Below are positions 1 through 20,000 of a DNA stretch of 20,000 nucleotides, one piece after another. A program made the translations under genes and the position numbers. The notes under the pieces were generated by a model, which was not told the DNA's origin, did not search any database, and was given only the letters and a program-made list of their open reading frames with translations. This stretch comes from Psammoneis japonica (taxonomy: Eukaryota). The stretch lies in assembly GCA_008632985.1 (NCBI GenBank), contig QPGO01000281.1:55083-75082 (forward strand), in the 5' to 3' direction. Each line of letters starts with the position of its first letter. Position 1 is the stretch's first letter.

Positions 1-1136
1 GTTCAGGATTGCCAAGCGAATTATCTTCCGGACGCAACGGCAAACTGGTAGGAGGTTCTTGTGGAGGCGAGCTTTGTCCTTGTTGGGTGCTTGGACTAAC
101 TGTTGCGGGAGACCCAGTTATTTGCGTTGGGCCCATGGTTGTCGGTGGGACCGTGGATGGGTTTGTCAAAGGTGGGGTTGGAATTGCCGTTGGTCGTTGG
201 CACAGTGGGTGAGTTTGTCGTTGGTTCGGTAGGAGATGTGGTTGTCGGTGGGACCGTGGTTGGATTGATCGGCTTTTCCGTGGTAAGAGGGGGGTCCGTT
301 GCGGCGGCACAACCTTCGGAACACCAACGATCTCTTGTGCCCTCCGGGTCTTCATTGAAGAGCCTCTGAAACACACCACTTGTACCGCCGTTGCACTCGA
401 TGGAACTGGGAAAATCACAACCCGACCCCGTGATCGCACATATTTGCCTTTTCCCGTTCATTGAATTCATCTCGTCAAAGACAAGGTCATTATAGGGTCC
501 ACAAAAATCCTCGCAGACTATTTTGCTGCAGCGGCCTGGCAGATCTGGGCGATTTGCGTCGCACCGGTAACTCTCGCTCTCACAAGACCGCCTAAATGGG
601 GTCGTCGTTATCGGCGTCAGAGTGGGTCGAGGAGTCAATGCAGGCGGCCGTGTCGACGTCGGAGTGGGTCGAGGAGTCGATTCAGGCGGTCGTGTCACCG
701 GTGGCAGGCCGGTACCGGCACCACACGCAACACAGACCGTTGAACGGACTTCTTCTGGGTGATTATTCATAGTTTCTTGGAACTGCGTCATGGTGGGACA
801 ATTGACGTCTTCATGCCATCCACAATTTCGGATGGCGCACTTGTATACGAATCCTAAATACATGCCGTAGAACTGTGCAGTGTACTCGAGCGTTTTTCCT
901 TGTCCACAGAAATCTGTGCAGATGTAGCACTCGGACATTGCAAAAGCCTTAGGACAGTCCAATCCGGAACGAAATTCGCAATAGTCGCTAACCGACAATT
1001 TGCGACTCGTTGTGGTGTTGGTGCGATTTCTCGCCCCGCGTACGAGTAGTGTTTCTTGGCCATTGGTGTTGGAAGGCCATCCAAACACAACTTGCTTTAG
1101 GATAAAGGGAAGCAGAGTTACCGAAAGCTTGAGCAT
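1..1136 (-). CDS. Putative secreted Cys-rich protein with two related Cys domains and Pro/Thr-rich (mucin-like) linkers; frameshift near 194; the probable true frame runs off the window start
   Basis: ORF 96..1136 begins with a signal-like MLKLSVTLLPFILKQVVFG, then an RKL motif and two domains sharing C.DFCG / CAI / FQ...N..PE..R...C. After about 194 the PT-rich text (PTAIPTPPLTNPSTVPPTTMGP...) continues stop-free in another frame to position 1. Confidence 0.75.
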
Positions 1137-1390
1137 GTGCGCACCTTATTCTTGCTGCCGCGAAAAACTGCGAGGTTCACTTTTTATGACCAGTGCTTTT
1201 AAGCCTGGATGTGGGCTCACTGGGGTGTTGCATTCGTCGATCGGTGCATTTTGTGAGTCCTTCAAAAACACACACGAAAAAAACTCGCGATTTCATTCCT
1301 GGATGTGTCACGAATTCGAATGTCGATTCTCGTTTTTGTTTTTGGTCTCAACCATCGTTTGCGCCATGCGTATCGTGGATTCTTCTCAAA

Positions 1391-2046
1391 TCTTTGACAA
1401 GGAACGAAGGATGAACTAAGCAAAACGGAGAACGCCATTGTCACTTCATGCAGCCGCTGCTTTGTGTTTCTTTTTTCTTTTTTGTCAAAAAAGTGCAAGA
1501 CGAAAGACGAGTCACGATTGCATGACGTCCCCAACGATGACGAGTTTCTACTTACAATTGCTCCTACGTAACAGCTCCATACAAAACATTGTATCCAAGA
1601 CTCTAAGTGTTCTTTGGTGGCGGTTTCTGTCTCAATCACTGTGTGCACTTTTGGGTCCTTTCTCTCCACTGGAGCAGCAGCAGAGAGAGAGAGCAGAGAG
1701 AGCAGCAGCCTCCAGAGCTGCTGCTCTGGAGCCACCGCAGGCAGCATGGAAGCACAAGAAGAAAGCGTTCATCATGGGCTCTTGTTGAGTCTTTGACAAG
1801 CAACAAAGGACAAGCAAAACAGAGAACACCGTTGTCACTTCATGCCACCACTGCTTTGTGTTTTTTTGTAAAAAAATGCAAGTGAAGCAACAAAGATGAG
1901 CCCTCAATTGTGCCACGTGCGCCTGACATGCTGAGTTTCTGCTGCTTGCACTCCTGCTCCTGCGTGCTGACAGCTCCGTGCAAAAATTTGGTGCCAAGAC
2001 TCCAAGCGAACATTGGCGGCATTTTCTGCCTCAACTGCTGTGCATT
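1391..2046 (+). repeat. Degenerate direct repeat of about 260 bp (copy 1 about 1391-1650, copy 2 about 1790-2046) straddling the edge of the TpA-depleted domain
   Basis: Shared blocks in the same order: tctttgacaag, aagcaaaac.gagaac.cc.ttgtcacttcatgc, ctgctttgtgttt, gagtttct, acagctcc, ccaagactc.aag. Confidence 0.85.
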
Positions 2047-5000
2047 GCAAACATCTTGGTCTGAGATTGTGCAATCAAAGGAGAAGAAAATGGAGAGGGG
2101 GTGGCCACCACAGGGGCATGATGGAGTCACAAACTGAGATGAAGAAAATGAAGAAGAGCACATGGCCAGCACAAGTCAATGGCAGCAGCCTTGGCCCCAA
2201 GCCCCCACACATGTGCCTTGTCCTTGCAATGGCGCCATGAGCACTCAAGAGTTGCAGAACACTCTCCAGCCAGGCAGCTGCCTCCCAGACCCTCCACCCA
2301 GCAGTGTCAGCTGATTGCAAAGTTTTCTCTGCAGCAATCAGACCACAGTCAGCCGATTGCATCCCTGCAGAGCAGCAATTGGTTGGCTGCATTTGTGCAG
2401 CAATTGTGTGGTCTGATGAACTGACTGCTGCCATTTCACTGATTTCAGCTGGAAAAAGAGCTTGAATTTTGATTGCGGTCGATTGCAACAGTCGATTGTG
2501 AATGTGACCTCCTGGGCTCTTTCCCAACAATCAGGTCATTGCAGTCAAGTTTGCAGCAGTGATTGCAGTCAAAGTGAGGCTGAATGCAATTGATCCTGGC
2601 AACTGGTTGACACTGCCCTCCAGGCCATGTCAACTTTTGTCTGAACAACCTTGCGGAACAGCGCAACAAGCAAAATGGGCAAGCAACCCATGGGGGCTCA
2701 TTGCAGCCAGAAGCAACACACTCTTCATTTTCAGATTTAACATTTGTGCCTTTGAAATCAATCCAGAGCAGATGAAGCAAGCTGGAAGCTCAATTTGTCA
2801 AATTTTGTCATCCTGCAGGATGGTGGCAACAATGTGATTTTGTCAACAACATTGTTTGGCTGCATTTTTTGTCATGCACCAAGAATTTTGCAGACAAACT
2901 TTGTTCTGCACTTTCACTCCAACAATCCAACTCTCTCCAAATTGACAATGTGAAAGTGGAGCCATTGCAATCACTTCAAAAATGTCCTCTCAAAAGATCC
3001 CTTGGATCCAAGTCATTGCTCTGTGCAGCAAAATCCAGGACTCATGTTCTTTGCTTTGTTGAAGACTGCTGAAACAGCAGCTCCCTCTCCATCTTGCTCT
3101 CAGTCAACATGAAACCAACCTCCTGCACCAGCAATGTCTCACACCACCACAAATCGAGACAACTGATCTTCACACCACCACACCAGCTTTGGCTCAGTGG
3201 GTGCCAAAAATCTGGCAAATGGTGGGATGATGCATCATCTGCATGCAACATGGCATCACAAATGGGTGCAACGGCATGCTTGCACAAAACTCATCTGGAT
3301 TCTGTTCTCTGATGGTCTGTTTGTGAACCCAAAAAAAAGTGTGACAAACCTGCTGCAGCAATGGGGCTGGACAAAACAATGATTGTTTGGATGCCTCATC
3401 TGCAGCGTCAATGTCATCATTGGCTCCAGTGGGCTTTTGACAAGTTCTCCATGTTGTCACCACCATGATGGTCTGTGCACTCAGTTGGAGCATGCCTGCC
3501 ATGCCATTTCGAAGTTGCTTGAGGCCTGGGTCTCACAGCTGCATCAACCTCAGAGTCAACACACCTTGCACTTTGTTTTCCTCCTCTTTGGAGCACACTG
3601 AGCAAAATCCTCTTGCAGGAGGCCCTGTTGTCTGTGCTCAGGAGCTGCACATGCATCCCCTCAAATCGTCCTCAAGCAAGAACATGGAGGAAGTGCCAGC
3701 ACACTGTGTTGTGCCATTTGGCATCATCAGCAGACCCACCAGGCCCACACATGACAGCTCAGCACACAACAAAAGTGACAGTGCCGCCATTGTTGTGTCA
3801 GCTGCAACTTTGGATTTTTCAAGAGCTGCTGCAAAGCCAGCCTTGAAAGTGCTGAGGCCACTCTTCACATTTTGTCCATCAAAACAGCACATTGTGGAAA
3901 CTGACCAGCTGCCTTTTTCCCAAGTCAGAGGAGCTCATTGGCTGCAACACAACAAAGAAAGCTGACAATCTCTCCTCCACTTTCATGCTGCCTCCTGCTC
4001 CAATGTTGGAAAACAGCTGAAAACCACTCACAGTGTGTTTGGGTTCAATGAGCTTGGGAATTTTTGTTGGCCATGGCACATGCTGTGTGTTTTGCAGACA
4101 GAGCAAAGCATCTGTGAGAACTTGTCAAAAGTTGCAATTTTGACAGCAAGACAAAACAACCAAGGTGGGTCAAGGCAGCAGCTGTCTTGTTCAAGCTGCT
4201 GCGGTGCTGTGTGGCAGCAGTCTAAATGACATGCTCTGCCTTCAAAACACATTTCTCACTTCTCCAGCTGCCTCAGAGGCAACAAAGCTGAAAGCATCTC
4301 TCAAAGAGAAAAACATGAGCTCTTTGTTGTGTCACCCATGTGCCAAAATCTGGCAGAAATGGACAACCACAGGTGGCCTCCACACTTCAACTTTTTAGCT
4401 CATTTTGGCTCAGTCAATGGTTTCACAGTCTGCTGCTGCACACCATCATCATGACTCAACATCTGTCATCTGAGCAGCACAATCTGTGCTCCAATTGCTT
4501 GTGCTGCTTTCTTGGCACATCAGCGAAGACACAAAAAACCTTTTTCTTGTTTTCTCCTTTTCATTTTTGCTGCACTCACTTTTAGATGGCAGCCCTTTTT
4601 GTCCCCAAGATTTGGTGCTCCACATGTTTTCCTGTCACATTTTTTGTTGAAGCAGATCAAGTGCTGGCACTTGTTGCAGGAATCAGCTGCTCCCCATTTT
4701 CTCAGTCATTTTGTGCTTTTTTGCATGAGTGGCATGTTCTTTTGCTTTCCAAAGGGCTGGCCCAAGAACCTTTCTTGCTTGCCTTGTAACTGCCCTGACA
4801 GCAGCTCTTTTTCAAGGCTTTTGACTGCTCTTGGAACAACACCGCAGCAGATTGCAGCCAGACATGGAAAAATCAGGGGCAACGTGTTCTCTGATTCTCA
4901 CAGAACAATCTCTACAGTGTCAGCCAGATGGCTTGTGTGGAAACCATGCTGATGCCACCAAGGATCAAAATGTGGGGTGAGCAACAAATCTCAGTTCTCC

Positions 5001-5340
5001 TGTGACACACAGAACAAGTGCGTGAAGGCATCAGAAGCCACACACACACCAGAAAAGGCTTGGACTTCAACAACATTGGAACACTTCTCACCTGGCAGCT
5101 CTGCAGCATGGAGGGACTCTGCACATGTCTGTTTGTGAGGGCCATCTGGTGGAGCAGCTGTGCACTGGCTTTGGGAGAAAAGCACCATGGCTGCAACCAC
5201 CAATGCCTCCAGACAGTTGATGCCCTGGCTTCTGCATGAGCCACAGCAACACTTGCCACATGACTGAAAAACATTGCAGCTTTGTGTTGCACTTGATGGC
5301 CAACCTTGAACACACTTTTTCCTGGCAGCAAACTTGTGGA
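1610..5340. other. Hypermutated domain A: TpA- and CpG-depleted, TpG/CpA-enriched degenerate DNA of unidentified origin
   Basis: Hand count finds about 7 TA dinucleotides (1869, 2738, 4223, 4396, 4583, 4787, 4913) in about 3.7 kb. ORFs in all six frames essentially lack Tyr and are rich in Cys/His/Gln. Confidence 0.9.
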
Positions 5341-6354
5341 CCGTTGTGTAGACCAGTGCTACGATGCCTCTACGACGATTGAAGTTCAAGACACACGTGG
5401 CGTAGTCAAGAATGACAAGGACGACGACAATTTCTGCGTCGTGTTCGACCCATATATAGCATTACGGTAAGTGCCGAGATATTTACTCTGCAGTTTTCGT
5501 CGATATCCAACGTCAGGCGTGGCCAACACGGTGGGTTTCATTCTTTCTTCTTGTTTTTGACAGGCATCCATTGAATTCGGTTGTTTCACTGCTTCTGACG
5601 GCATTCATACACCGTACCGTGCGACCAACTCGTCCCCCCGGATAGCGGAAGCTGTGCTACTTCAAGTCCTAACTGCATTAGCTCGTTGACGCTTTCAGTC
5701 CAGGAAATTTCTTGCGAAGAAAGCGAAAGCCAAAACAACCAAGTCAACGAAACATGCAATGACTTCGCTGACGTGGAACTCGAGGGTAAACTTATCCAGG
5801 TCACATGTGGTGATTCGCAGGCCGAACTTGAAAGAAGAACGGTCTATCGTAACCAGCCGTTCAAAGTTGGAACTGGAGATGACTGTCTACCAGACGACAT
5901 CCAGTGTAAAATCTACGACTATAATGATCAGAGCCAGATAGTCCAGATGGTCACTTTTGATACGTCATGCGCGGAACCGTTGAATGTCAAGAACACTTTT
6001 GGAATGTTGCAGATTGAGGGTTGTGCTGATCAGTGGGAAAACTTCAATCGGCAATGTCGCCCCTTTGTTGATACCACTTATTCAGTGTCAAACGTTGGTG
6101 ATGAGGTTTTCACTCTCACTGAAGCTTATGATTCGATTTATGACTTTGATTTTCTACATGGGGAACCACAAACTGTGCCACCGAGTGAGCCCAAACCTTT
6201 AGTATTAGCTGTCCACCAGGACGCTTTCGATTTGTGTGTTCAGGGCATTGCTTGCTACAACAGCACTTCGACTGTCAAGGCTGAATCTAATGAAAATGGA
6301 GCCCCGTGTGAAGCTATGGCGATGGAAAGTTTTTGTTATCCAGGGATTTTTTGA
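5339..6354 (+). pseudogene. 5'-damaged, frameshifted gene for a Cys-rich repeat-domain extracellular protein (diatom-type, QMVTFDTSCAEPL...FG.L.I.G motif; possibly DUF7467-like)
   Basis: Exon piece 5339-5466 (DRCVDQCYDASTTIEVQDTRG...NFCV) resembles the ORF C-terminus (DLCVQGIACYNSTSTVKAES...SFCY). After the intron come ASIEFGCFTASDGI and PCDQLVPPDSGSC..., which joins ORF 5686..6354. Frame breaks at about 5455 and about 5610. The domain name is from recall only. Confidence 0.65.
5467..5563 (+). other. GT-AG intron (97 bp)
   Basis: Donor GTAAGT at 5467; pyrimidine tract ttcattctttcttcttgtttttga ending in CAG at 5561-5563. Confidence 0.75.
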
Positions 6355-6875
6355 TTGGCGGCGACCAAAGAATCTTCCCCTGTGTGTTGTGTTTCGAGAT
6401 GCGCTGTAACTTTACCGTTTTGTACCGTGGCACTTCTCCAAGACTTCTCGTTTTGCGTTGAGATAGGCATATACCGTAGCTCTTGTTTGTCACTTTGCAT
6501 CGAGAAAGATAGGAATACATGCCGTGGCTCTTGTCTTACTGTACCGTACTCGTATCATAGGGCCCGGAAGCTAGCTCTAGCTACGGCCGTGATCGTTTAT
6601 GAGAGTCGCACCACCGCTAGAGTAGAGGGCCGTACTGCTCTAGTAGAGACACGTCTCTACTCGAACTCTATGCACTTCACAACCAACAAACTTTCGGTGC
6701 CAATGACAAAAATACAAAATAAAGGCTGCTCGAAGAACTTAATTCATGTTATTAAAGTTTCGACAAACGCTTAAGATAATTTCGCTTCACAATCACAAAT
6801 GGCACACAAAAAACAAACTCCATACTACCAGGGAGCTGCACCACACTACACACACAAAGAACCAAATGATTAGCC

Positions 6876-9800
6876 TCAAACACTCTTGTCGCCAGTGCTT
6901 GCTGCTTCATCGTCGGCTGGTTTCTTTACGGAATCTCCCTTGAGTTCCCCACCCGCTTCGGCATGTCGCAGAGCGGACAAACTTCTCGCAATCGCCCAAT
7001 CGGCAGCATCACTCGCGCCAGCTTCCTCGGTTGATCCTTCTGCCTTGCTCTGTTCTGCAATCTGCATCCAAACTTCCGCTTGAGCCAGTGCATCCTGTTC
7101 CTCCTTTAATGCCTTGGCCTTTTTGGCCTTGGACGATCCAGAACTGGCATCGTCGCTCTTGCCGGCTGAAGTATCCGATTTCTTCCTTCCAAACCAGCTT
7201 CTTCGTTTGCTTCCGCCACTACCGCTGCCACTACCAGTACCCGTGCTCTTGCCATCATCCCGGCTCGTATCGGGACTACTGCTAGACATGCTCTTGCCTT
7301 CTCTGTCTGTCTTGGAAAAGTTACCCGCCGCAGCCATGACTCCCGTCCAGTCACCCTTGTCAATCAACGCGTCAAGCTCTGCCGCACGCTCGGCATTGAC
7401 ACCGGTCCTTTTCTTTCGGCTGCTCGCGTCGGTATCCAACGAGGCTGAAAAGGACCGCGACGACGCTGTCGTGACACTCGCGTCACTCATCATGGCAGCT
7501 GCTTCTCCGACAGCCTCCCAGTCACCAGCATCAATTGCCTCCTCGAGCGCTGTTCTCCTGCGCTTTCGCTCCGTCTCGGACGTGTCGCCTTCGTCCTCTG
7601 ACTTGAGAGCCGGTGCAGCCTTTGCTTTATCGTCCTTATCATCCTTTTTGCTCTTGGCCGCTACAGCGGCTCCGGCCGCACCAAGCGCTGCTCCACCAAC
7701 TGCCGCACCAGCAGCAATACCAGCCACGGCTCCTCCCGACAATCCTCCGTCACCACCGCCTCCAGCCGCCGCTGCAGCGGCGGCAGCATCACCCTGCCTC
7801 GCTTTACGAACCTCATCGCGAGCCTGAATCTTGGCACTCTTGCGGTCCGCCGCCCTTGCACGCTGGGCAATGCTGCGTTCCTGCATGGTCCTCAAGGTCT
7901 CCACCAATTCCTCTTCGCGTCCACGGAATTGCAACATCATTTCATCCACATTGTCAATCTCGTCCGGCACGACACGACGCACCAGGGCCTCGACTTCGTT
8001 ACGAATCTCGGCACGCTTTGCCTGCTTGCTCGGACTGTCACTGAGACTGGTCGTTTCGCCCTGCGAGTATCCCGAGGACGTACCATAACTGCCACTTCCC
8101 GTACCCGTATACGAACCCGTATAATACTCGGACGATCCCGCCGTTCCACTGCGCGTCGCCGATCCCGACTGCGACCCGGAATTCTTACTTCCGGTTTCCG
8201 ATTTGGACGTGGACGACTCTCCTTCCGACTTTTCAAACCTCGCTGCCGCCAAAACGACACCCTCCCAATCTCCGGCATCCACCAAATGATCCAATTCGGC
8301 CGCACGCGCCGCGTCAATGGACGAGACGGAGGATCCACCCTGGAAGCGGACGTGCCCGATTTGCGGCTCTTGGAGGAATGGGATTGCGAATCCGACGCGG
8401 CCGCCAAGAGGCCGCCGTGGCACCCACCGCGGCCCAATCACCGGAATCAATGGCACTGTCCAAATCGGCACGCGTCACCGTGGGAAGGTCCGGCACATCG
8501 CCGCTTTCAATCTTATTGGCGGATCGTGCACTCGCCACTCCCATGGCGGCCAAACTCGCTCCACGCTGTGCCTCGTCCTGTTCGGAATTGAGACTGGAGA
8601 CACCGGCCGACGAGGACCATCCACTCGAACCAGCATTCGAGGAGGAATCGTCTGATTTCTTTGCTGCCGACGCGACCGCCAATTCGGTATCAGTATCACG
8701 TTTGTTTCCCTTGCCATACGTCGCCGTTCCGGCACCCAACACCGCCGCCTTGTCTTCTGTCGAGGGCATGTACGGACGATTATCGTCCTTGTCTTGAGCA
8801 CGTTTACGACGAAACACAAAGTACCCCACACCGGCAATGGTAACCACCGAGGCAGCAATGACGATTCCGGCAATGCCTCCACCGGAAATGCCACTGTCGG
8901 GTGCTGGTGCCGGAGTCGGTGCTTCGGCCGGAGACAAGATGCGCACCACCGAATTGGGATTGACCACCGTCAGGGCAGTTTGCAAATCGCCATTGACAAA
9001 GATCGCTTCCGTCAAGGCTTGTTCGTAGGCATCCCGCACCGCTGCCGGATCGTCCTCGTCGGTAATCTCGAGAATCACCACGGGATTGACTTCGCGGCAT
9101 TCGTCCGTATCGGGAATGCCATCCGGACAAGCTGTGTATTGAAAGGAGTGAAAATAGAGTGAGTATCGTAATATGCAAGTGGCATTCACAATACACAACG
9201 CAATCCAACTGATGTAATAACACTGTACACATTTCTTTTTTACTTACGAATCACAATGGTTCCTGTAATGGACGTGGGTGTTCGTACCATGACGGCCAAT
9301 CGTCTACTACGCAATTGTCGTCGTCGCATTCGAAATTCCGAAAGAGCAACATTGGTGGCCACAATATTCATGGCGGCAATCAAATCGTCTGTATAAGTAG
9401 ATGGATCGACTTCTTGTACCAATCCATCTTGTACCGCAATCGGATACGGTACCATGACGGTTTCAAAATCCGGTGTCGTTTCCAACGATGGTGCTGCCGT
9501 CAAGGTGGGACCGCTCGTGGTGGGTGCCATGGTGGGTGTTCCCGGGAGTAAACTGGGAGCCGACGAGGGCATGATTGTGGGTGCGGCACTGGGAGCATTG
9601 CTGGAAATGACACGATTGATGGACGTGTCCGTAAACAAACACACCGAAAAGAGATAGGGTGTCACTTGTCCTTCATCGACACCGGTAATGTTGATGCGCG
9701 CATTGTCTCCGATACAACAATCATCCGCGGCTCCCGGCACATTGGTACAGAGACACGCGAGGGCATTGAAATTGAGTTGCAAAATCACAGGCAATTCACT

Positions 9801-10043
9801 GAAGTCTGTAACATTTTCCAGAAATCCATCGGGACCCGAGAGTTGCACAAACGTGACGTATTCTTGACGATCAATCAAATCATCCTTGGGGCAACAGTCC
9901 GAGCCGCTCAGAGCACCGTAACACGTGTCGGTATCCACAAACGGACCGACACTGACATTTTGGGCACCAGTAAAACAATTCAGGAGCAAGAGAGATAGCA
10001 TAAACCTGAGTATCATGGTTGTTGTTTTTGTTGTTGCCGTCAT
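6876..10043 (-). CDS. Type I membrane protein, two exons (10043-9248, 9131-6876): signal peptide, Cys-rich domain with an EF-hand-like motif, PS/T linker, RxL motif, TM helix, and a long Ser/Gly-rich cytosolic tail with four GDW repeats; two apparent 1-bp deletions at about 8410 and about 8339
   Basis: Joins ORFs 9240..10043, 8314..9198, 7937..8437 and 6876..8471. Splicing gives IVI-P-CPDGIP in frame. TM is GIAGIVIAASVVTIAGVGYFVF followed by RRKR. Also present: DDLIDRQEYVTF, RRRQLRSRRL and a VPDEIDNVDEMMLQFRGREEEL motif. Confidence 0.85.
9132..9247 (-). other. GT-AG intron (116 bp, phase 1)
   Basis: Minus-strand donor GTAAGTA at 9247 and acceptor ...ctcctttcaatacacAG at 9132; removal fuses two ORFs in frame (C|CT = Pro). 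Confidence 0.85.
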
Positions 10044-11570
10044 GGTTGTGTTTCGTTCAAAACTACTTCAGATTCAAGAATCACTTTTCGTTATTTCAAC
10101 TCCTCCCCAGAACAATACGGTGTAGAAACCACGTAGATTCGTACCACACGTAAAAGGTACAGTACTACCACAACCGACGAAAATAATTAGTACTTTGGCC
10201 CGCTTGAGTGATCAACGATGAAACAATCTCGCTGTTGTCGTTGTTGTTTGCCTCGCCCACACACAAAAACACAAACAACACACGACTACCCGATTGCCGT
10301 TGGGTCAACTTTCACGTACTTGCCGGTCTTGGATTACTTGGCGCCCAATGTGGTGTTGTTGCAGTGCAGTATGGCGTGGTTTTTGTGCTGGCGGGTTGCT
10401 CCCGGTTTGCATCTCAGATCTTCATGTGAAGGTTGAATATTTGAATGTAGGTATACCATCGCTTATACATGGTATGATTAAAGAACGTTACTTGGCCATT
10501 GAGTGTATGTACAAGCGGATTATTGATAAGCATACAAATCTATATACATCATTACCAATGTTTTTGTCCAACAGTATCAATTTTGATTGGAATGAAATTT
10601 TCTTTCATTTTCCTGTCCGTTCAAGAATTGCAGTTACTCTAAGAAATGGAGATATTTTATTCAACGGAAAATTTTTGGCCAGGACTCAACATGTTATCTA
10701 CGGCCATGAGGACAAATAATTCAGTCACGCTTGACGTCATGCTCGCGCACGCACTTCAGGAGCATGCGGATGATTCGATGAAAATTTCGCACGATTGGCG
10801 CATTGGTGGCAACTGGGACGGCGCGCCGGGCTGTCTCACTGCTCCAGTCCCAGGAACAATCCATCCAGCTCATTTGGCTTTCATGCTGTCTGATGGTTGA
10901 TGATTGTGCCTTGGCTCTGTGTGTGTGGCAGTGGATGCAGAGAGAGGGCTGGGGTGCTGCAGTGCGAAGGAGGAGAAATGCAGCCCTCTGCCACCAACCC
11001 CCACTCTCTCTGCTGATTGCTCAAAGGGGGTGTTCATTTTTTGCCCCTCTCTCCACATCATTTTGCAGTTTGCACTTTCAAGCTGCTGGCCAAAGAAAAA
11101 GATGTTGAGCTTGCGCAGCACAAAAGAGTCAAAGTGTGCGCACATTTCTTGCTGTGACAAAGCCTGTCTTGGTGAGACAGTGCAGCGCAGCTGGGGTGGA
11201 AAAACCAGCAGCGCCGCATTTCCCAGCTGCAATGAGCGACAATCTGTGAGCAGCTTTGGAGGGGGAGAGCTGCAGCTTTACAAAAAAAAAGGCTGTTGAA
11301 AGAACTGCCAATCCTTCCTCAGGACACAAACAAAAGAAGCTGACAAAAGCAGTGTGCTGACTTCCTCCCTTCTTGCACTGAGCCCATGTTCTTTGTTGCT
11401 GAAAATTTTCAAGCTTGACATGTTGGAAGATTGCCGCTGTCTTTTGGACACTTCTCCAACAATTTTTGCACATTGTTTTGGTGACACAGGTGGCGCCAAT
11501 CTTGTTGTTGCTCAGCTCACAATCAGCCCAAGCAAATGCTGTCCTTCTGACATCACATTGCATTTTCGTT

Positions 11571-11701
11571 GGCTGATTGAGGAAAACAAGCTTGGGAACA
11601 AAGGGGTTCTTGCATCATGCTTGTGCATTTCCACAGGCTGATTGAGGAAAACAAGCTTGGGAACAAAGGAGCTGCATCGTGCTTGTCATGTGATTTCCAC
11701 A
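11571..11701 (+). repeat. Tandem duplication of a unit of about 65 bp
   Basis: ggctgattgaggaaaacaagcttgggaacaaagg is identical at 11571 and 11636; both units end in atttccaca. Confidence 0.9.
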
Positions 11702-14221
11702 CGTGGCTCTTCTGAAATGTGAAGCAGGGTCTTGTTTTCTTGTTGTGTTTTGAAACAAAGTTGTTTTGTTCATTGTCACCTCTCATCTCACTTCACTTTG
11801 TTTGGCTCAGAGCAAAAACAAGTTCTTAAAGTGAGCTCCCAAAATGGCACACCTTCACTTGGAGCTCCAAAACTTTGCAAAAGGTTTTTTCATTGGCAAG
11901 CTTGAGCATGCAGAAAAGAAAAATGAAGCTCTGCACAGTTTTGCAGTGAGAGATGTCACATGGAAAATAAAAAAAATGAAAAAAACAAAGGAAGTTGTTT
12001 CATTTGATGAAGTCTGCAAGCCTTTGAACCAAGGAAAGAACAAAAATTCAGAAAGACAGATCTGTTGACTCCACTCATCAACTTCTTGATCATGACAGCC
12101 CACAAATTTGACCATTGCCACACCTGCAGTGGATTCTTGCTTGCATCAGTGCCAAAAGAGAAACCACAAAAAAAAAGCGAACAATTTGGCCCAGCTTTGC
12201 AAACAAAAACCCCGCAGACAACGCACCTCTGCCACTGCATGATCTTTTGAAATGAAAAGAGCAACAGCTCCATTTTGCCAGTTGGCCACCATTGGTCAAA
12301 GCCACTGCACATGGGAACAAGATTTGTGGGGTGTGGGGTGTGGCCATTGCACACAAGCCAACTCCAGGCACAAACTTCAGCCCTGGGTGGGTTTCCAGCA
12401 GCATGACCCTGCTCTTGCACAAGTGCCCACAGCAAGGGCTTGCTCAAATTCAAGTGTGCAAAAGCACCTGCAGCAGGCAGCTGTGCACCCTGCACAGAAA
12501 GCCACATGTTTTTCACCATGCAAAACTTGCCCAACAACCTGTTCACAAGCCCAGCAGCAGATGTGAAAAATGTTCAAACCATGGCAAGCTTGTTCATCCA
12601 GGGCTGTGAACAAGCAATGATGCCTGCAACCCTTGTTTTTTTGGCCCAAACTTGCACAAATGCACAGCCACCATCTCAGAGCACCTGTGCAAATTTGAGC
12701 TCATCAAAGCCAAACAGGAGGGATGACACACAGGCAGGCATGACAAACTCTGTGCATTGTGAGCTCTGCATTTTGCATGCCAGGCAGTGAGTGCATTTTT
12801 CTTCAACACTGCTCCAGACAACTGGTGGAACCTTGCAGCATTGGACTGTGACATTGAGCCTTTTTTCATGTGCTGCATGTTGCATGATGCACACACATTT
12901 CTGTGCACCTTTGATGGAATTTTGTGTCATTTTGCAGATTTGCAAAAATGGTGCCAAGCATTGAGGTGTGCAGTTGTGCCACAAACTTGGTCATTTTTTC
13001 AGATGTCGAAGACAAGCACATCCATCAAAAACAAATTCTTGTGCCACAGAGCTGGCGTGTGGAGCTGCACAAGCCAGTGTCACATGGAGCCCCATCGCCT
13101 GGGGCTGGAGCCTGTTGCAAGGACCTCTTTTGCAGCACAGCCATGCCCCCCCCCTTGTTCTTTTTTTAACATCTGCACATGCCAGCACACTCTCAAGATG
13201 TTGGCAAGGGTGCTGACACACAAGAAACATCAAAAGTTGTTGAGTGGATGACTGGACAGTTGCGCTGCAATCTCTGCAAAATTTGTCCACAGTCATGCAG
13301 AAATGTGTGCCCCAGATGTGTGGTGCATGATTGCAGACATGCACATTGCAGCCCAGCAGCACAAGGCCCTGCATGGTGCTTGCCAAGATCTGCCATTGTG
13401 CCACACATCTTGTTGACTTGTTTGGGCATGATGCAAGCAGAGCTCTTTCCTCTGTCTGATGCTCCTTTGATGAGCACCGGGGCTCTCACCACCCACTTCA
13501 ATCTCTGGAGACTCGCATCAGAGGGGGGGTGCAATGTGGTGGTTGTTGCTTTCATTGACACTTGTTTTGATGCTGAATTTTAGTTGTCTTGTTTTTTAAA
13601 ACATGACATTCAAACCTCAATGGTCTTTGCACAATGCAAGGCATTTCTCTGCATTTCTTGAGGAATTTTGTCATCTGTTTGCTTTGACCACACATCCCAA
13701 AGTGACTTGCACATCCAAAACTTTTGTGATTTGCTGCTTGAGTTGTGACAATGAATCCTCTTTGCTTTTGACATTTCACATTTCAACTCAGTTTTTGCTT
13801 TTCACACCCCATTCGTGCATCACCATTGTGTGTGCTGGTGCAGTGTCTGCACCCCAGTCATCTCCACGTGTGCACTCCCTCTTTGCATCTCACTCATTCC
13901 CAGAACTCTGTGCACATTTCTCCACCACATTTTCAGTGCTTTTTCTGCATGAGCCATTTTCTGCACATTTCACAACAGCACACTCTCTCCCCTTGGTTTG
14001 GTTTTGCCACAGGATTCCCGAAAATTCCCCGGGATCACCACCTTTTGCCATGATTTTCCACTGGAAGCTTGATTTCTTGGGGATTCACCACGAATTGCAC
14101 TTTGTCACATGCACACTGCACACATGAATAAAAAAATTGGGAATTCCCTGTGCTTCCCTCTCACGCATTTCTGCACCCACGTGCCGGGATGCAGCAAGCA
14201 AAATCCCAGTGGAGTGGTCTG

Positions 14222-14636
14222 TGTTGGGTCAGTGTGTGGAGTCGTTGCTGGATGGTGTGGGAGGAATGGCTGCAGACGTGCATTTGGGATGTGACATCCA
14301 ATTGTGTGGGAATGAAAATGCGGAAACAAGTGCATCAACAAGACAAGGGTGAGAGTGTTGCGGCACAGGCTGCGACACTGCATCAGCATTTGTTCGCTTT
14401 GTCAGAGCCACAGTCTGCTGTTGAGCATCTGAATGCAGTGAAATTGTCATTGCGTGGGTGTGAAACAAAACGGCATGCACAGTCGTTTGTTGCTGTGCAG
14501 AACCACATGGGTGTCAGCCACAGAAACAGCACTGGGTTCTGCATGTGCGCATTGCGCAACGTCAGATTTTGCAACAAATGCAAACCAACCATGAGAATTG
14601 CTGTGACTGAAATGGTGTCACACTTGCGAATCAACA
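14222..14636 (+). repeat. Candidate 5' LTR of copia element 1
   Basis: Bounded by TGTTG (14222) and CAACA (ending 14636), the canonical copia LTR termini, about 220 bp upstream of the gag ATG. No second LTR in the window to confirm. Confidence 0.45.
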
Positions 14637-16866
14637 GTTTTCGATGTGTGTGACAGGTGTTGATCTGAGCAGTGTGGGGTGGCATGCCCAGAGCATGTGC
14701 TCATTCAGACAAACTGGCATGGGGTGGCCTCTCATTGCTGGTTGACTGCATGGACCTGTTGCCACAGCGCTCGCTGAGTGTTCAGTCTCCTGTCCACACC
14801 CATTGTGAGAGTCTCACAGTTGCTGCAGCTTGATTGTCTTTGTGACACAGGAGACATGGCAGCAGCAGCAGCTCAAGCTTTGGCAGCATCAGTGCTGGCA
14901 GCGGACATTGACAATGTTCTGCAGACATGTGGCATCACTGGCATCAATGCAAGAGCTTGCTTGGTGTGCTGTGAAGGATTTGCAACACTGGAGAACATTG
15001 CAGTCATGGAAGGTGACTCAGATGTGGAAGACATGGCAAGCAGGGTTGGCCGTTGCACTGGCCAGGATGGGAGAGTGGCACTTGGTGCTGTCCAAATTAA
15101 GAATCTGCAAGCTTTGGTTTGGTGGCTTCATGATCATCAGAAGCACAACCTTGTGCTGGAGGATGCAGCACTGTTTAATCAGGCAGCACTGATTGATGCT
15201 CACCAGAAGAAGTGCATGGAAAAAGATGTGGTTGAATCAGAAGTGTTGGTCAGCTCATTGCCGGCATTCAAGTTGGAGAATTTTGACATGGTGGAGGATG
15301 CATTTCTGAACCTCTTGTCACAGAAGGTTGGGGCACTGAAAGAACCATTGCGTCATCATGTGATGAGACTGGCAGCAGTGCCAGCCACATTTGTTGACAC
15401 AGCCAAGGAGCACATGTGTCAATTGAGTTTGAATGGGATGGCATTCGATCAGGACAACGGTGCTGTGTGTCATCTGTTGAAAGCTCACCTGGTGAACATG
15501 GAAGTGGTGGCATGGATTGAAGCCTGCAACAGTGCAGAGAACAGGAGAGATGCCTTCTGGGCATGGGCAAACCATTGCAACAGACAGGGAGAGCTTGGCA
15601 AGTGCACTCAGTTGGCGTTGGCAATCATCAAGAGTCATTGCACTGCAAGAACAAGCATCACTTGTCATTTGAATGGCACACAGCAAAACTCACCAGTGCA
15701 TTTGCAACCGTGGCAAAGAGTGAGGACCGGTGCAAGACAGACAGGCAGAAAGTTGAGATTCTCCAAAGATGGGTTGAGACCGACAATGTTTGGCTGCAGG
15801 CTTGCATTCACATGATCAGTCCACAGCATCCTCGTGACTTTCCTGGCATGTGTTCAGAGGCTGAGCATGATTCAAAGTGCAAGATGTTGGACATGTCCCA
15901 TGAGAGAGGCCCAGGCAGGGGCTTCACTCGAGGTGGCGGTCGAGGCCCCCGAGGAAGTGGTGGTTGAGGTCATGGGCCTGGAGGCCACGGCAGGGGATGA
16001 TTTGGTGGCAGAGGTGCAAATGCAATGATTGATGGTGCGGGCATGTTGGACCCCACTTGTGCCTTTTCCCCAGATGAGTGGCAGCAACCAAGGTTCAATG
16101 GTGGCCAAGTGCATGTTGCACAAGCCCGTGAGCAGATGGCCAGATGTGGTGGCAGTCCTGGACATGGACGTGGTGGCCCCGGTGGACAACAGGCAGCTGG
16201 TGCACACCAGAGTCCAGACAAATCAATGCAACAACAACAGGAACAGCTGCTGGCTGATGCGGCAAGTGCAGGTTGTGGACGTGGACACAAGATTGAGAAA
16301 GGGGGTGGTCATGGAGCAGTTTTTGGTCATGGAGCCCACATGACCACCTGACAGTGTGGGGGGTGACAGCCGTTTCAGCTTTGCTTGCATGCCACACAAA
16401 TGTGATTGCATTGTCTCTGCTGTTGTTGCTTGTGCTGTCTAAACCCCACCCAGACAACACCACAAAGAGTTTCTGAAGGATCAAGGCAACCTCCAAAAGA
16501 TTGGCACAATCGGCGAATGCAGCGTCAAACCCGGGCAATGTGGTTCCTGGTCATGTGTCCCACAATGAATGTCACACCCATGCAGACACGTGTTGTGCAG
16601 GAGCAAACTGGAGATTGATGGAGACCACTGATGAAATGTGTGAAGCAAGTCCATTCCTTGAATCGTGTGATCTGGTTGGGCAGATTCCAGTTGCGCGATG
16701 TTGTGCTGTTTGGACAGATCCAGCTGTGATGGATGAGTGCTTGTTGGTTGGTGACCAGATGCTGTGGTTTGGACAGCAAATGGAGCATTCCCTTGTCAAC
16801 CCCAGTTGGTTGTGGGCATGCAACATCTCAGTCAATGACAACCCTTGCGATCCCCAAGACAGCTTT
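14222..16866 (+). mobile_element. Degenerate Ty1/copia LTR retrotransposon 1 (diatom CoDi-like): gag, Gly/Arg-rich region and aspartic protease, truncated at about 16866
   Basis: gag-like from ATG 14856 (QIKNLQALVWW, FLNLLSQKVGALKEPLR, AFDQDNGAV.HLLK, RQKVEIL) with a frameshift near 15633. Protease-like ECHTHADTCCAGANW...SPFL...IPVA...WT...QMLWFG..MEHSLVNP...V.DNP at about 16560-16860. Confidence 0.85.
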
Positions 16867-19077
16867 GACAGACATCCGAGATGGGGAGTGCACTCCCTTG
16901 TGTCGGACAGACTGGCACAGACAGCATGGAGAGATCCGATGATCTCTCCTTTGCTCACTTTCTTTCTCATCTAGTGCACGATTGTCATCTGTCCTAGACA
17001 TCAGTTAGATTGTCCCAACACCGCCAGTCTGCAAGGTTGTGAGCAGCAGTGTGCTGTTCCTCTTCCTCTGTGCTCCTCCGCTGCAACGCCTGTTGCGCCA
17101 ATTGGCAATTTTTTCTTCGTTGAAATCGTCATCATTGTCACAGCTGTTTTTTCACCTCTCGATTTGTGATCAGACAACCACCGTAGAACACATGCCAGAG
17201 ATCTGCACAGAAATTTGATTTTTTTCCACGCAACCATGATGGTGAACAAAAATCAAAACGCCGTCGATTTGACCAAGATCAAGATGGCTGCGGGTTGAAT
17301 TCAGCCCACACAATTGCTCACCCCATGCACACCGTTTCCTGAATGCTCTTTGTTCCGACAAGACACATGCTCCTGAAGATCTTCTGGATGGATTCACCCC
17401 TCAAGGCCTCAAGAGCAATGCTGTTGCTGTCCTCCGTCATGAGATCGTTCAGAATCTCATCATCCCTCAAGCTGCACTGACTGAAGATCTTGCATGAATC
17501 GGACCAATCATTGAAAAGGCCCCTCTCTTTGTGGCCATCTCTCAAGACTCCCTGGTTCATCTGAACCTCAGCACTCTTCAGAAGGCCATGATCAAAGCGA
17601 TCTCAGAGAACGACGACACCATGAGGGCACACGCTGAGACTCCACGCTTCCACTTCAGCCCTGGATTTTGACATTGTGATTGCTGGGATGACATTTCAGA
17701 TGATCCGCATCCAGACCCACCACCTCCTTCAAGTTCTGCATCCCTGCCAGTTCCTGCTGTGCAGGTCCTGCTCCTGAAGACTTTGAGCAAGCTGTGACAA
17801 ACGCATTGAAGACATCCACTCCTCCTGTGCCATCTCATGCACCGTCTCCCATGACTGATGCTGCTGCGGCTTCTTCCTTGACTGCTGCTGGTGCTCTGCA
17901 CACCTTCAATCCAAAAGGACTTCCAAAGGATGCACCAGCCCGCCACCAAAAAAAGGACGCTGAGAAAGCAGCACTGGGGAAATCCCTGGCACCCCACAAG
18001 TCTGGAGACCTTTGTTGCGAGGATGGCACTGAACGTCCAATCCTTGCTGATGGTTCTCTCTTTGTCCATCGCATTGATTGGGATGCAAAGTCTTTCCTTC
18101 ATGATCCTCTCACTTGTGACAATGTCTCCCCTCAAGGAATCCGTGCATGGCACACTGCTGTGACCCAACAGGCCTCCGCTTGTGGCATGTGCATGCACCC
18201 CCTGTGGTGTTTTGTCAAGGACGGTGGAAACTGGGGCTTCACTTGTGGCAATGATCCCACCAATGATCCTCCACTCCGGATGACAGTGCCCCTTGACAGA
18301 ATGAAGTTGACCATCTTCCAGCACATTCAGAAAGTTGGAATCTTTCTGGCAGACTCTAAGTGCCCTGACATTGTTCGTCAATGCTGTGGAGACAGATGTG
18401 CTGCCATCAAGATGACCCTTTTCAACATTTTGCCGATTTGGACAAAGCGTCCTCATGAGTTGATCAAGAGCCACCCCCAGCAATCGCTGCTTGTGCAATG
18501 CTCACAGGCACATCAAGGGCGTCCCAAAGTTCCGACATGCCAATCTGGTCCTTGACATTTGTCCTGTGGGTGTCCAAGCCAAGCAAGTCAAAACTCCTGC
18601 TGGACCCAATGTGACTCAAAAGGCAACTCAGCCATGCCAAGGCCTTGCTGTTGATTTTGCCTTTGCTGGCCAATGCTCCAAGAACAAAGATGGCAAGTCT
18701 GATTGCCTTGGACACAATGGCAAAACGTGTTGGATCACTGTTTGTGACCACAAAACACACATGCTCCATGGGGTTGCAAGGGTTTCCAAAGCCAGTCCTC
18801 TCAAGTGGCTTTGCCAATTCTTGGATCAACATTTGCCGAATTGTCATGATGAACATGCATTTGTGGACCAAGGTGGGGAATTGTGCAAGAGTCCCAAAGT
18901 TGGTGACCTCTTTGAACAAGAATCCCAGTGTGACACATGTCCCTCTGGCACCGGTGCATCCAACCAATGTGGCCCTGTTGAACGCTCACATTTGACTGTC
19001 AAGAACGCGATTGGTGCAATTTCAATTGGTGCCAACCTCCCAATCAGGTTCTGGCCCCATGCTTTTTACCATTGCCT
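16866..19077 (+). mobile_element. Degenerate Ty1/copia element 2 (different lineage): gag-like region fused by internal deletion to pre-integrase and integrase core
   Basis: gag-like IRAW...HPLWCF..GFTCGND (ORF 17794..18555). Integrase core QGLAVDF...DH.T...SKASPL.WL..FL...VDQGGEL...GPVERSH...GANLP.RFWP.AF (ORF 18491..19249). The left boundary is approximate. Confidence 0.85.
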
Positions 19078-20000
19078 GATTTCTGATGCACAAGCACGAT
19101 CCATTGGCGCACACTGGGAAAATCCAAAACCACAGGTGGGGTCCTTTGGAGGCCATTTCATGGCACAGGTGACAGTCGCAGCAAAAGGATTTGACGAAGA
19201 AGCAAACATGGGCACAGTTGCATCCTGTGTTTCAGCCAGAAAAGGCTGACCATTTTCCACACGTTGCAAATGGGTGGCATTTGGAGGAAGTTGATCCAAA
19301 AATGGGTCATTCACACCCTCATCGTAGTGCACATGCTTTGCCGTCTTGACTTTGTCAGTCTCCGGATCCCTCCACAGGACATTTTTCAGGGTGTTCGGAA
19401 GACAGCCAAGGAAGACACCCTTCTTCGAATTGGTCCGGAAAGTGGCAGAACGAGCAGTGGAACGTTCAGACCACACTCGGCATCCAAAAGTCTTGAGAGC
19501 AGCAAAATCTTTGACCTTTCCAGTTGCAAGGGTGATGGGCGAGGCATCTTGATCTTTCGCAGGAGCAGCATTCTTGATGTGGAGGCAATGGCAAAAAGCA
19601 TGGGGCCAGAATCTGATCGGGAGGTTGGCGCCAATTAAAATTGCACAAATCGCGTTCTTGACAGTTGAATGTGAGCGTTCAACAGGGCCACATTGGTTGG
19701 ATGTGCCGCGGCCAGAGGGGCATGTGTCACACTGGGATTCTTGTTCAAAGAGGTCACCAACTTTGGGACTCTTGCACAATTCCCCACCTTGGTCCACCAA
19801 CGCATGTTTGTCACGACAATTTGGCGAATGTTGATCCAAGAATTGGCAAAGCCACTTGAGAGGACTGGCTTTGGAAACCCTTGCAACCCCATGGAGCATG
19901 TGTGTTTTGTGGTCACAAACAGTGATCCAACACGTTTTGCCGTTGTGTCCAAGGCAATCAGACTTGCCATCTTTGTTCTTGGAGCGTTGGCCAGCAAAGG
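19078..20000 (-). mobile_element. Inverted second copy of the element 2 integrase, extending further C-terminally
   Basis: ORF 19066..19899 carries DQGGEL, GPVER, KTFGCRVW, KGVFLG and HV..DEG copia integrase motifs; 19583-20000 is the reverse complement of 18660-19077. Confidence 0.9.

Follow-up and report, generated by a model that had tools for sequence, protein, structure and literature searches.

Two TpA-depleted, CpG-poor domains in a diatom-like genome: probable in-place A:T-to-G:C hypermutation of transposon-rich DNA

Why does one copy of a tandem duplication contain TA dinucleotides when the copy beside it has almost none? The window analyzed here (the whole 20,000-nucleotide stretch, to which all positions refer) holds a head-to-tail duplication of about 397 bp, delimited by local alignment, that spans the left edge of a domain nearly devoid of TA (Table 1). 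The first-pass annotation read this pair as an internal before-and-after control and proposed that TpA loss is an acquired, position-dependent mutation rather than an inherited composition. The locus thus raises the questions of whether TA was lost inside the domain or gained outside it, and of what kind of process could have produced the difference.

Two domains of the window are nearly TA-free and poor in CG, and the DNA at 1 to 1604 and at 5349 to 10717 is ordinary. Together the domains contain 25 TA dinucleotides in 13,027 bp, where about 444 would be expected, giving an observed/expected (o/e) ratio of 0.03 versus 0.56 in the flanks (238 in 6,973 bp). The CG o/e ratio is 0.26 in the domains (201 occurrences) and 1.11 in the flanks (495 occurrences), so that CpG density in the domains is 22% of that in the flanks. 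Ratios for CA (1.83 versus 1.20), TG (1.80 versus 1.15), and the GC dinucleotide (1.26 versus 0.98) are higher in the domains. Expressed as shares of all dinucleotides, TA falls from 3.41% in the flanks to 0.19% in the domains and CG from 7.10% to 1.54%, a combined drop of 8.8 points (10.5% to 1.7%) that is about equaled by the gain of 8.0 points in TG plus CA (14.6% to 22.6%). YpR steps in total make up nearly the same share of dinucleotides in the flanks (25.1%) and the domains (24.4%). A constant YpR share with TG and CA in place of TA and CG is what conversion of TA and CG to TG and CA predicts. G+C content barely differs (49% in domains, 51% in flanks).

Table 1. Positions of the features discussed in the text
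Feature	Position	Strand	Remarks
Host gene A, Cys- and Thr/Pro-rich, secreted-looking	96..1136	-	ATG 468 bp from domain 1 edge
Tandem unit, copy 1	1366..1764	.	Upstream region of gene 96-1136(-); 9 TA up to 1604, TA-free from 1605
Domain 1	1605..5348	.	7 TA in 3,744 bp; CpG scarce
Tandem unit, copy 2	1763..2147	.	Inside domain 1; one TA (1869), not aligned to a copy 1 TA
Multi-copy repeat in domain 1	about 2430-3720		From contig depth
Host ORF B (DUF7467)	5686..6354	+	Start 337 bp from domain 1 right edge
Host gene C, first exon or ORF	9240..10043	-	ATG 674 bp from domain 2 edge
Domain 2	10718..20000	.	18 TA in 9,283 bp; runs past window end
Multi-copy DNA in domain 2	13641-18600		From contig depth
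Copia-type integrase fragment	18476..19087	+	About residues 398-600 of Cylindrotheca fusiformis polyprotein (tblastn)
Inverted repeat arm a, 418 nt	18660..19077	+	
Copia-type integrase fragment P0001	19075..19998 (ORF 19069-19998)	-	SH3_retrovirus domain; one Tyr in 310 residues
Inverted repeat arm b	19583..20000	-	22 differences from arm a

All three domain edges in the window lie upstream of the start codons of neighboring ORFs, at the distances listed in Table 1. The right edge of domain 1 is sharp, with both TA and CG back at 5342 to 5349; an edge this abrupt is as compatible with the end of a transposon as with a chromatin boundary. At two of the three edges, dense CpG extends past the TA edge into the domain by 110 to about 600 bp; in domain 2 it ends at 10827, 110 bp inside the TA edge. 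Farther in, the CG o/e ratio fluctuates between 0 and 0.6 where TA stays close to zero. Because the CpG and TA edges are offset and the CG ratio is variable, we take the losses of TA and of CpG to be separate processes.

The tandem pair is real and straddles the domain edge, as the first-pass annotation had stated. A repeat search (1418-1473/1812-1867 at 88% and 1372-1422/1771-1821 at 73%, with spacings of 394 to 399 bp), MAFFT alignment (mean column identity of 81%), and local alignment agree on it, and TRF missed it. In gap-free columns with copy 1 positions up to 1645, there are 205 matches and 59 mismatches (78% identical). Every TA dinucleotide of copy 1 in gap-free columns is changed in copy 2 (8 of 8), as are 11 of 14 CG dinucleotides, compared with 79 of 230 other dinucleotides (Fisher's exact test against the others, P = 2.6e-4 for TA and 1.4e-3 for CG). 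TA became TG at 1550, 1554, 1566, 1570, and 1581 and CA at 1417 and 1604; the eighth TA was changed by transversions, so the earlier statement that essentially every alignable TA of copy 1 reads TG or CA in copy 2 applies to seven of the eight. The statement that TAC goes to TGC each time was borne out (4 of 4). CG of copy 1 reads CA or TG in copy 2 at nine sites, including CA at 1427, 1434, and 1456 and TG at 1508, and each of the TA and CG examples quoted in the annotation is present in the sequence.

As a before-and-after control, the pair has a real contrast to offer, but it is old and noisy: 23 of the 59 mismatches are transversions, identity is down to 78%, and four CpG transitions run in the opposite direction, with CG in copy 2 against CA or TG in copy 1 (1437, 1579, 1608, and 1618). 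The description of copy 1 as lying outside or at the edge of the domain also needs adjusting, because copy 1 keeps TA up to 1604 but the TA-free zone begins within it, at 1605.

The direction of change is supported by several lines of evidence that point to erasure of TA inside the domains rather than its gain outside. One is the Copia integrase ORF of domain 2, for which a full HMMER search found 3,088 relatives, 150 of them listed; the 41 listed matches that span about 240 query residues or more were used for alignment. In the ORF, 86 of the 120 conserved columns are retained, but all five conserved Tyr columns have changed and now read His, His, Cys, Trp, and Arg. A single transition suffices to explain 19 of the 34 changed columns (9 TA to TG or CA, 3 CG to TG or CA, and 7 other). 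Among the nine TA losses are all four conserved Ile-to-Val changes and one Met-to-Val change, and in each of these five cases the codon follows a T, so that the lost TA spanned the codon boundary. The changes at CG sites are Arg to Cys, Arg to His, and Glu to Lys.

A second line comes from the inverted repeat arms of the two Copia copies, which meet head to head. Of the 22 differing positions (of 418), 16 involve only TA, CG, TG, and CA: TG stands against CA in three doublets, CG stands against TG in four cases and against CA in four, and TA stands against CA once and against TG once. A TG-versus-CA doublet implies a TA or CG ancestor that was resolved separately in each copy after the two diverged, and for the doublet at 18850/18851 the ancestor is identified as TA by a Lys that 32 of the 41 homologues share. 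A third line comes from a diverged third contig with a single unit, which covers 1138 to 1315, continues with 61 other letters, and then covers 1773 to 1876, ending before the TA-bearing part of the unit. Among 5 listed of its 17 differences, it reads the copy 1 state at four (G at 1805, 1821, and 1828; A at 1831), which makes three CG-to-CA changes and one CAT-to-CGT change derived in copy 2. The TA ratio of the flanks, at 0.56, gives no sign of TA gain there. The integrase Tyr losses, the arm doublets, the YpR balance, the third contig, and the flanks thus all support the original proposal of an acquired and position-dependent loss, and the mutations occurred after the DNA had reached its present site.

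The surviving dinucleotides delimit the sensitive sequence context. YTAR accounts for 16 of the 25 TA sites in the domains but 26 of the 238 in the flanks, a density relative to the flanks of 0.33; the corresponding values are 6 and 58 (0.055) for RTAR, 3 and 70 (0.023) for YTAY, and 0 and 84 (0) for RTAY (Fisher's exact test, P = 8e-9 for YTAR and 6e-5 for RTAY). TA therefore persists mainly where both strands read T-A-purine, which makes T-A-Y (R-T-A on the other strand) the sensitive motif, in agreement with the conversion of all TAC trinucleotides of the pair to TGC. Outside TA, A-to-G differences in the tandem pair affect 14 of 57 V-A-Y sites versus 1 of 75 V-A-R sites (P = 2.8e-5) and include the four that make CG out of C-A-Y; their polarity is taken from a single outgroup site (1831) and from shifts in dinucleotides such as GC (1.26 versus 0.98). 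The target is thus T-A-Y or, weakly, N-A-Y. Residual CpG in the domains is enriched in RCGY (64 of 201, versus 81 of 495 in the flanks; P = 1.3e-5), with a density ratio of 0.42 against 0.16 to 0.21 for the other classes, as expected if A-to-G change at C-A-Y keeps making new CpG. TG (1,454) and CA (1,495) are about equally frequent in the domains, and no 1-kb bin there has a significant TG/CA skew; both strands were hit.

Among 113 stop-to-stop ORFs of the domains (translation table 11), the sole Pfam match was the Copia SH3-like domain, and tblastn of 10 Copia polyproteins against the window found no gag, reverse transcriptase, or RNase H remains beyond the two head-to-head integrase pieces. 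The nearest named relatives of the integrase among the listed matches are Cylindrotheca fusiformis proteins, and a search for homologues of near-equal length to P0001 gave six matches. Long ORFs without a family match occur on both strands (up to 345 aa, 14778-15815). TAA and TAG have nearly disappeared, leaving TGA as the sole common stop codon, which accounts for such ORFs; they are probably spurious. A 46-nt direct repeat lies at 11559-11669 in domain 2 (91% identical, 65-bp spacing), one of its differences being TTCG versus TCCA. No Rfam family was found in the window.

We propose that these are two intergenic domains, full of transposon remains, that were probably mutated in place by two colocated processes. 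The first would be a near-saturating A:T-to-G:C transition process that turns TpA into TpG or CpA, strikes both strands equally, and prefers T-A-Y strongly and any A before a pyrimidine more weakly. The second would be ordinary decay of methylated CpG to TpG or CpA, the CpG loss presumably being driven by 5-methylcytosine (5mC). Mutation would have spilled about 800 bp from the repeat into single-copy DNA and halted 340 to 670 bp upstream of start codons. The duplication of a gene-upstream region would have ended with one copy outside the domain and one inside it, which is how the before-and-after contrast arises. We infer that the agent is enzymatic and acts on the DNA of silenced chromatin by deaminating adenine to hypoxanthine, which is read as G, that its targeting cue may be chromatin or repeats, and that its role could be genome defense, like that proposed for the chlorarachniophyte Bigelowiella natans.

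Repetition itself, rather than position, could have been the trigger: a scanner resembling fungal repeat-induced point mutation (RIP), with opposite chemistry, would have attacked repeats and leaked, and the outer tandem copy would have escaped partly or by chance. Fungal RIP does leak into adjacent unique DNA, and the domains do hold Copia remains and multi-copy repeats. Contig depth (from the three listed runs of one sample, none recorded as RNA and one, X3, placing no contigs; contigs were placed at 80% likeness or more, and only covered parts were read) is about 70 to 120 over the flanks but 388 to 1,010 at 1861-3720 and 400 to 8,200 at 13641-18600, a 4- to 80-fold rise. Loose ends and many-contig variants start near 2430-2550, so that about 1605 to 2430, which includes copy 2, is single copy at that likeness and yet TA-free beside a multi-copy element; this indicates spreading, or position dependence. 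Two other segments of single-copy depth, 3721-4960 and 10541-13640, are just as TA-free, which argues against repetition as the trigger, although the segments called single copy could be old repeats. Moreover, only the inner of the two tandem copies is TA-free. The comparison with RIP is also drawn in the preprint on B. natans, the accessible passages of which nevertheless report a single-copy giant-virus target (bioRxiv 10.64898/2026.01.13.699255). We regard a repetition trigger as unlikely. As separate observations on copy number, a very high-copy stretch without a Pfam match, at 16741-17360, reaches a contig depth of about 8,200, where the baseline is about 100, and 33 contigs read C at 17367.

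The attacked base might instead be thymine. Oxidation or modification of T at TpA, for example to 5-hydroxymethyluracil or 5-formyluracil, would lead to mispairing with G and T-to-C change. 5-Formyluracil mispairs with G, and dinoflagellates show an enrichment of 5-hydroxymethyluracil at TpA. Because TA is palindromic, T-A-Y read on one strand becomes R-T-A on the complementary one, and the sequence fits either A or T as the attacked base. The sole published proposal for such a process, as far as the accessible text of the preprint goes, is adenine deamination (bioRxiv 10.64898/2026.01.13.699255), and we give attack on thymine slightly less credence than a repetition trigger.

The one recognizable element being a retrotransposon, its RNA or cDNA might have been edited before integration, by an ADAR- or APOBEC-like activity, so that the copies arrived already mutated. 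Such editing is strand asymmetric, whereas TG and CA are about balanced in every 1-kb bin here; mutation also reached single-copy flank and a duplicated piece of host upstream sequence; ancestral sites common to the two arms were resolved one way in one arm and the opposite way in the other; and TAG and TAA are the resistant contexts, opposite to the 3' G preference of ADAR. This makes editing before integration very improbable. We think just as poorly of the idea that the composition was inherited with foreign DNA, or selected at the RNA level against UpA and CpG, without any special mutation process. Joint suppression of UpA and CpG is described for RNA viruses and cytoplasmic RNAs in the sections available of one study (PMC3829696), but the depletion here is extreme, it leaves the YpR share intact, it extends to a duplicate derived from the host, and the element's own integrase has lost conserved Tyr, Ile, and Met codons.

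The footprint recurs outside this sample. Of the 150 listed integrase relatives, 15 contain less than 1% Tyr; in these, the conserved-Tyr columns hold Cys in 20, His in 18, and Tyr in 1 of 53 filled cells, as against Tyr in 150 of 196 cells for 40 ordinary matches. The 15 are Tyr-free, Cys/His-rich Copia integrase fragments (P0007, P0026, P0036, P0040, P0047, P0059, P0073, P0084, P0091, P0098, P0129, P0134, P0135, P0144, and P0148) and share a pattern of Tyr-to-Cys or -His and Arg-to-Gln, -Cys, or -Trp replacement. Records were consulted for 11 of them, and all trace to ENA or JGI assemblies. A metagenome scan with P0001 gave two short loci (L001 and L002) with ordinary TA o/e ratios (0.72 and 0.67). 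The Tyr-free fragments bear on the suspicion that modified bases were miscalled as TG or CA during sequencing or assembly, which the presence of the sequence in one sample only might encourage: unrelated assemblies at ENA and JGI also contain Copia proteins that lack Tyr and have Cys or His in its columns, and contigs of run X1, from the same sample and so not independent, reproduce 798-2952, 3783-4970, and 12908-13872 with 3, 1, and 1 differences at a depth of about 65 to 70. We consider such an artifact scarcely credible. The reverse polarity, in which classical RIP-type C-to-T change made TA in copy 1 and the flanks, would suit the pair, which on its own is symmetric, and was named in the first-pass annotation as the outcome that would overturn its reading, but it is contradicted by the Tyr losses inside the domain, by the TG-versus-CA doublets, and by flanks that hold intact genes at a TA ratio of only 0.56, and we give it almost no weight.

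In-place hypermutation of A:T pairs, with a preference for T-A-Y, in transposon-rich silent DNA that also undergoes CpG decay is thus the reading we favor. The only precedent for localized TpA hypermutation that we found is a 2026 preprint on B. natans (Mettrop et al., bioRxiv 10.64898/2026.01.13.699255). According to its accessible passages, 230 of 231 hypermutable-region mutations in mutation accumulation lines were A to G or T to C, all at TpA, with a de novo rate about 1,000-fold above background; the targets are an integrated giant virus and virophage; the genome contains 124 TpA-poor, CpA+TpG-rich clusters; and an ADAT2-like adenine deaminase is proposed. The likenesses to the present locus are A:T-to-G:C change at TpA, clusters poor in TpA and rich in CpA+TpG, action on both strands, foreign or mobile targets, and a proposed role in defense. 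A literature search at the abstract level, covering open journals and bioRxiv main texts, found no diatom report of TpA loss; the other matches concerned fungal RIP.

The two cases also differ. The host here is diatom-like (a stramenopile), not a chlorarachniophyte, and the targets are Copia remains and adjoining unique DNA instead of an inserted giant virus or virophage. Here depletion approaches saturation (o/e of 0.03), whereas Rho is 0.45 in the giant-virus region as given in the accessible part of the preprint. A-to-G change extends to V-A-Y here, whereas the mutations described there are exclusively at TpA; the 3' pyrimidine preference has no counterpart in those passages, which report no flanking context (the words "trinucleotide" and "flanking" are absent); and CpG is codepleted here, whereas the term "CpG" does not occur in the accessible text. 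The rate in B. natans was measured in mutation accumulation lines; the process described here is known from sequence alone. Given the V-A-Y changes and the CpG codepletion, the two systems may not be the same.

As in fungal RIP, dinucleotide-specific transitions ruin transposons, leak outward, and leave sharp-edged compositional domains. RIP, however, is C-to-T change at CpA that gains TpA and makes DNA AT rich, whereas here TpA is erased with little shift in G+C; and RIP mutates both duplicates, whereas here one of two tandem copies is affected. The reduced CpG density, the gain of TG and CA, and the restriction to transposon-rich DNA resemble 5mC-driven decay, but that process covers only the CpG half of the pattern, and the CpG-poor zone, besides starting inside the TA-free zone at two of three edges, is much less complete. 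Diatom transposons carry CpG methylation by DNMT5a, and diatoms have RID-like DNMT4 genes of unknown function, according to the portions available of one report (PMC9998398). ADAR-like RNA editing, finally, is confined to the element as well as strand asymmetric, whereas the pattern here is unskewed and affects host-derived and unique DNA.

The presence of this scar in a diatom-like genome as well suggests that the process is widespread among marine protists. At this locus the scar is saturated, is aimed at retrotransposons, and spills into unique DNA, and the motif it reveals is sharper (T-A-Y, weakly N-A-Y), a specificity to which any deaminase proposed as the agent must conform. Going further, we tentatively raise the possibility, to which we give somewhat less than an even chance, that T-A-Y-directed A:T hypermutation is a genome defense shared by distant SAR lineages (diatoms and chlorarachniophytes), acting beside cytosine methylation on silenced chromatin and collapsing all four YpR steps into TG and CA. 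If so, it would mirror fungal RIP in function, its transposons would be stripped of Tyr, of Ile, and of every stop codon but one, and its easily searchable footprint, Tyr-free and Cys/His-rich transposon proteins, would already be present in environmental assemblies. Assemblies and metagenomes could be screened by combining the TA o/e ratio with Tyr-free transposon proteins that have Cys or His at conserved Tyr positions, and the genetic tools available for diatoms make the mechanism testable. For annotation, such domains carry a warning: they give long spurious ORFs, and homology searches on them fail.

Of the genes beside the domains, the ORF with the DUF7467 label (ORF B) had weak matches in a protein atlas (0.87 or lower), to bacterial families, and a homologous-protein search with it gave no match. 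The gene C ORF matches Pseudo-nitzschia multistriata proteins and MMETSP transcripts, one of them named "Gram..."; one homologue is named as an EF-hand domain-containing protein of P. multistriata, and gene C at 6876-10043(-) contains repeated Asp-Trp-x-Ala-Val-Gly-x-x-Ala-Ala motifs. Together with the C. fusiformis relatives of the integrase, these matches make a diatom, and not Bigelowiella, the most likely source of the window. Within the Thr/Pro-rich part of gene A, a 42-bp tandem repeat lies at 611-696 (2 copies, 88% matches). A second contig, roughly 83 to 85% similar over 655-963 and 1138-1876 and of nearly the same depth (about 61 versus 68), covers gene A and the sequence upstream of it; stretches of 75 and 108 nt within the gene are missing from this contig, which has only one 397-bp unit and may represent a paralogue, a homeologue, or a diverged allele.
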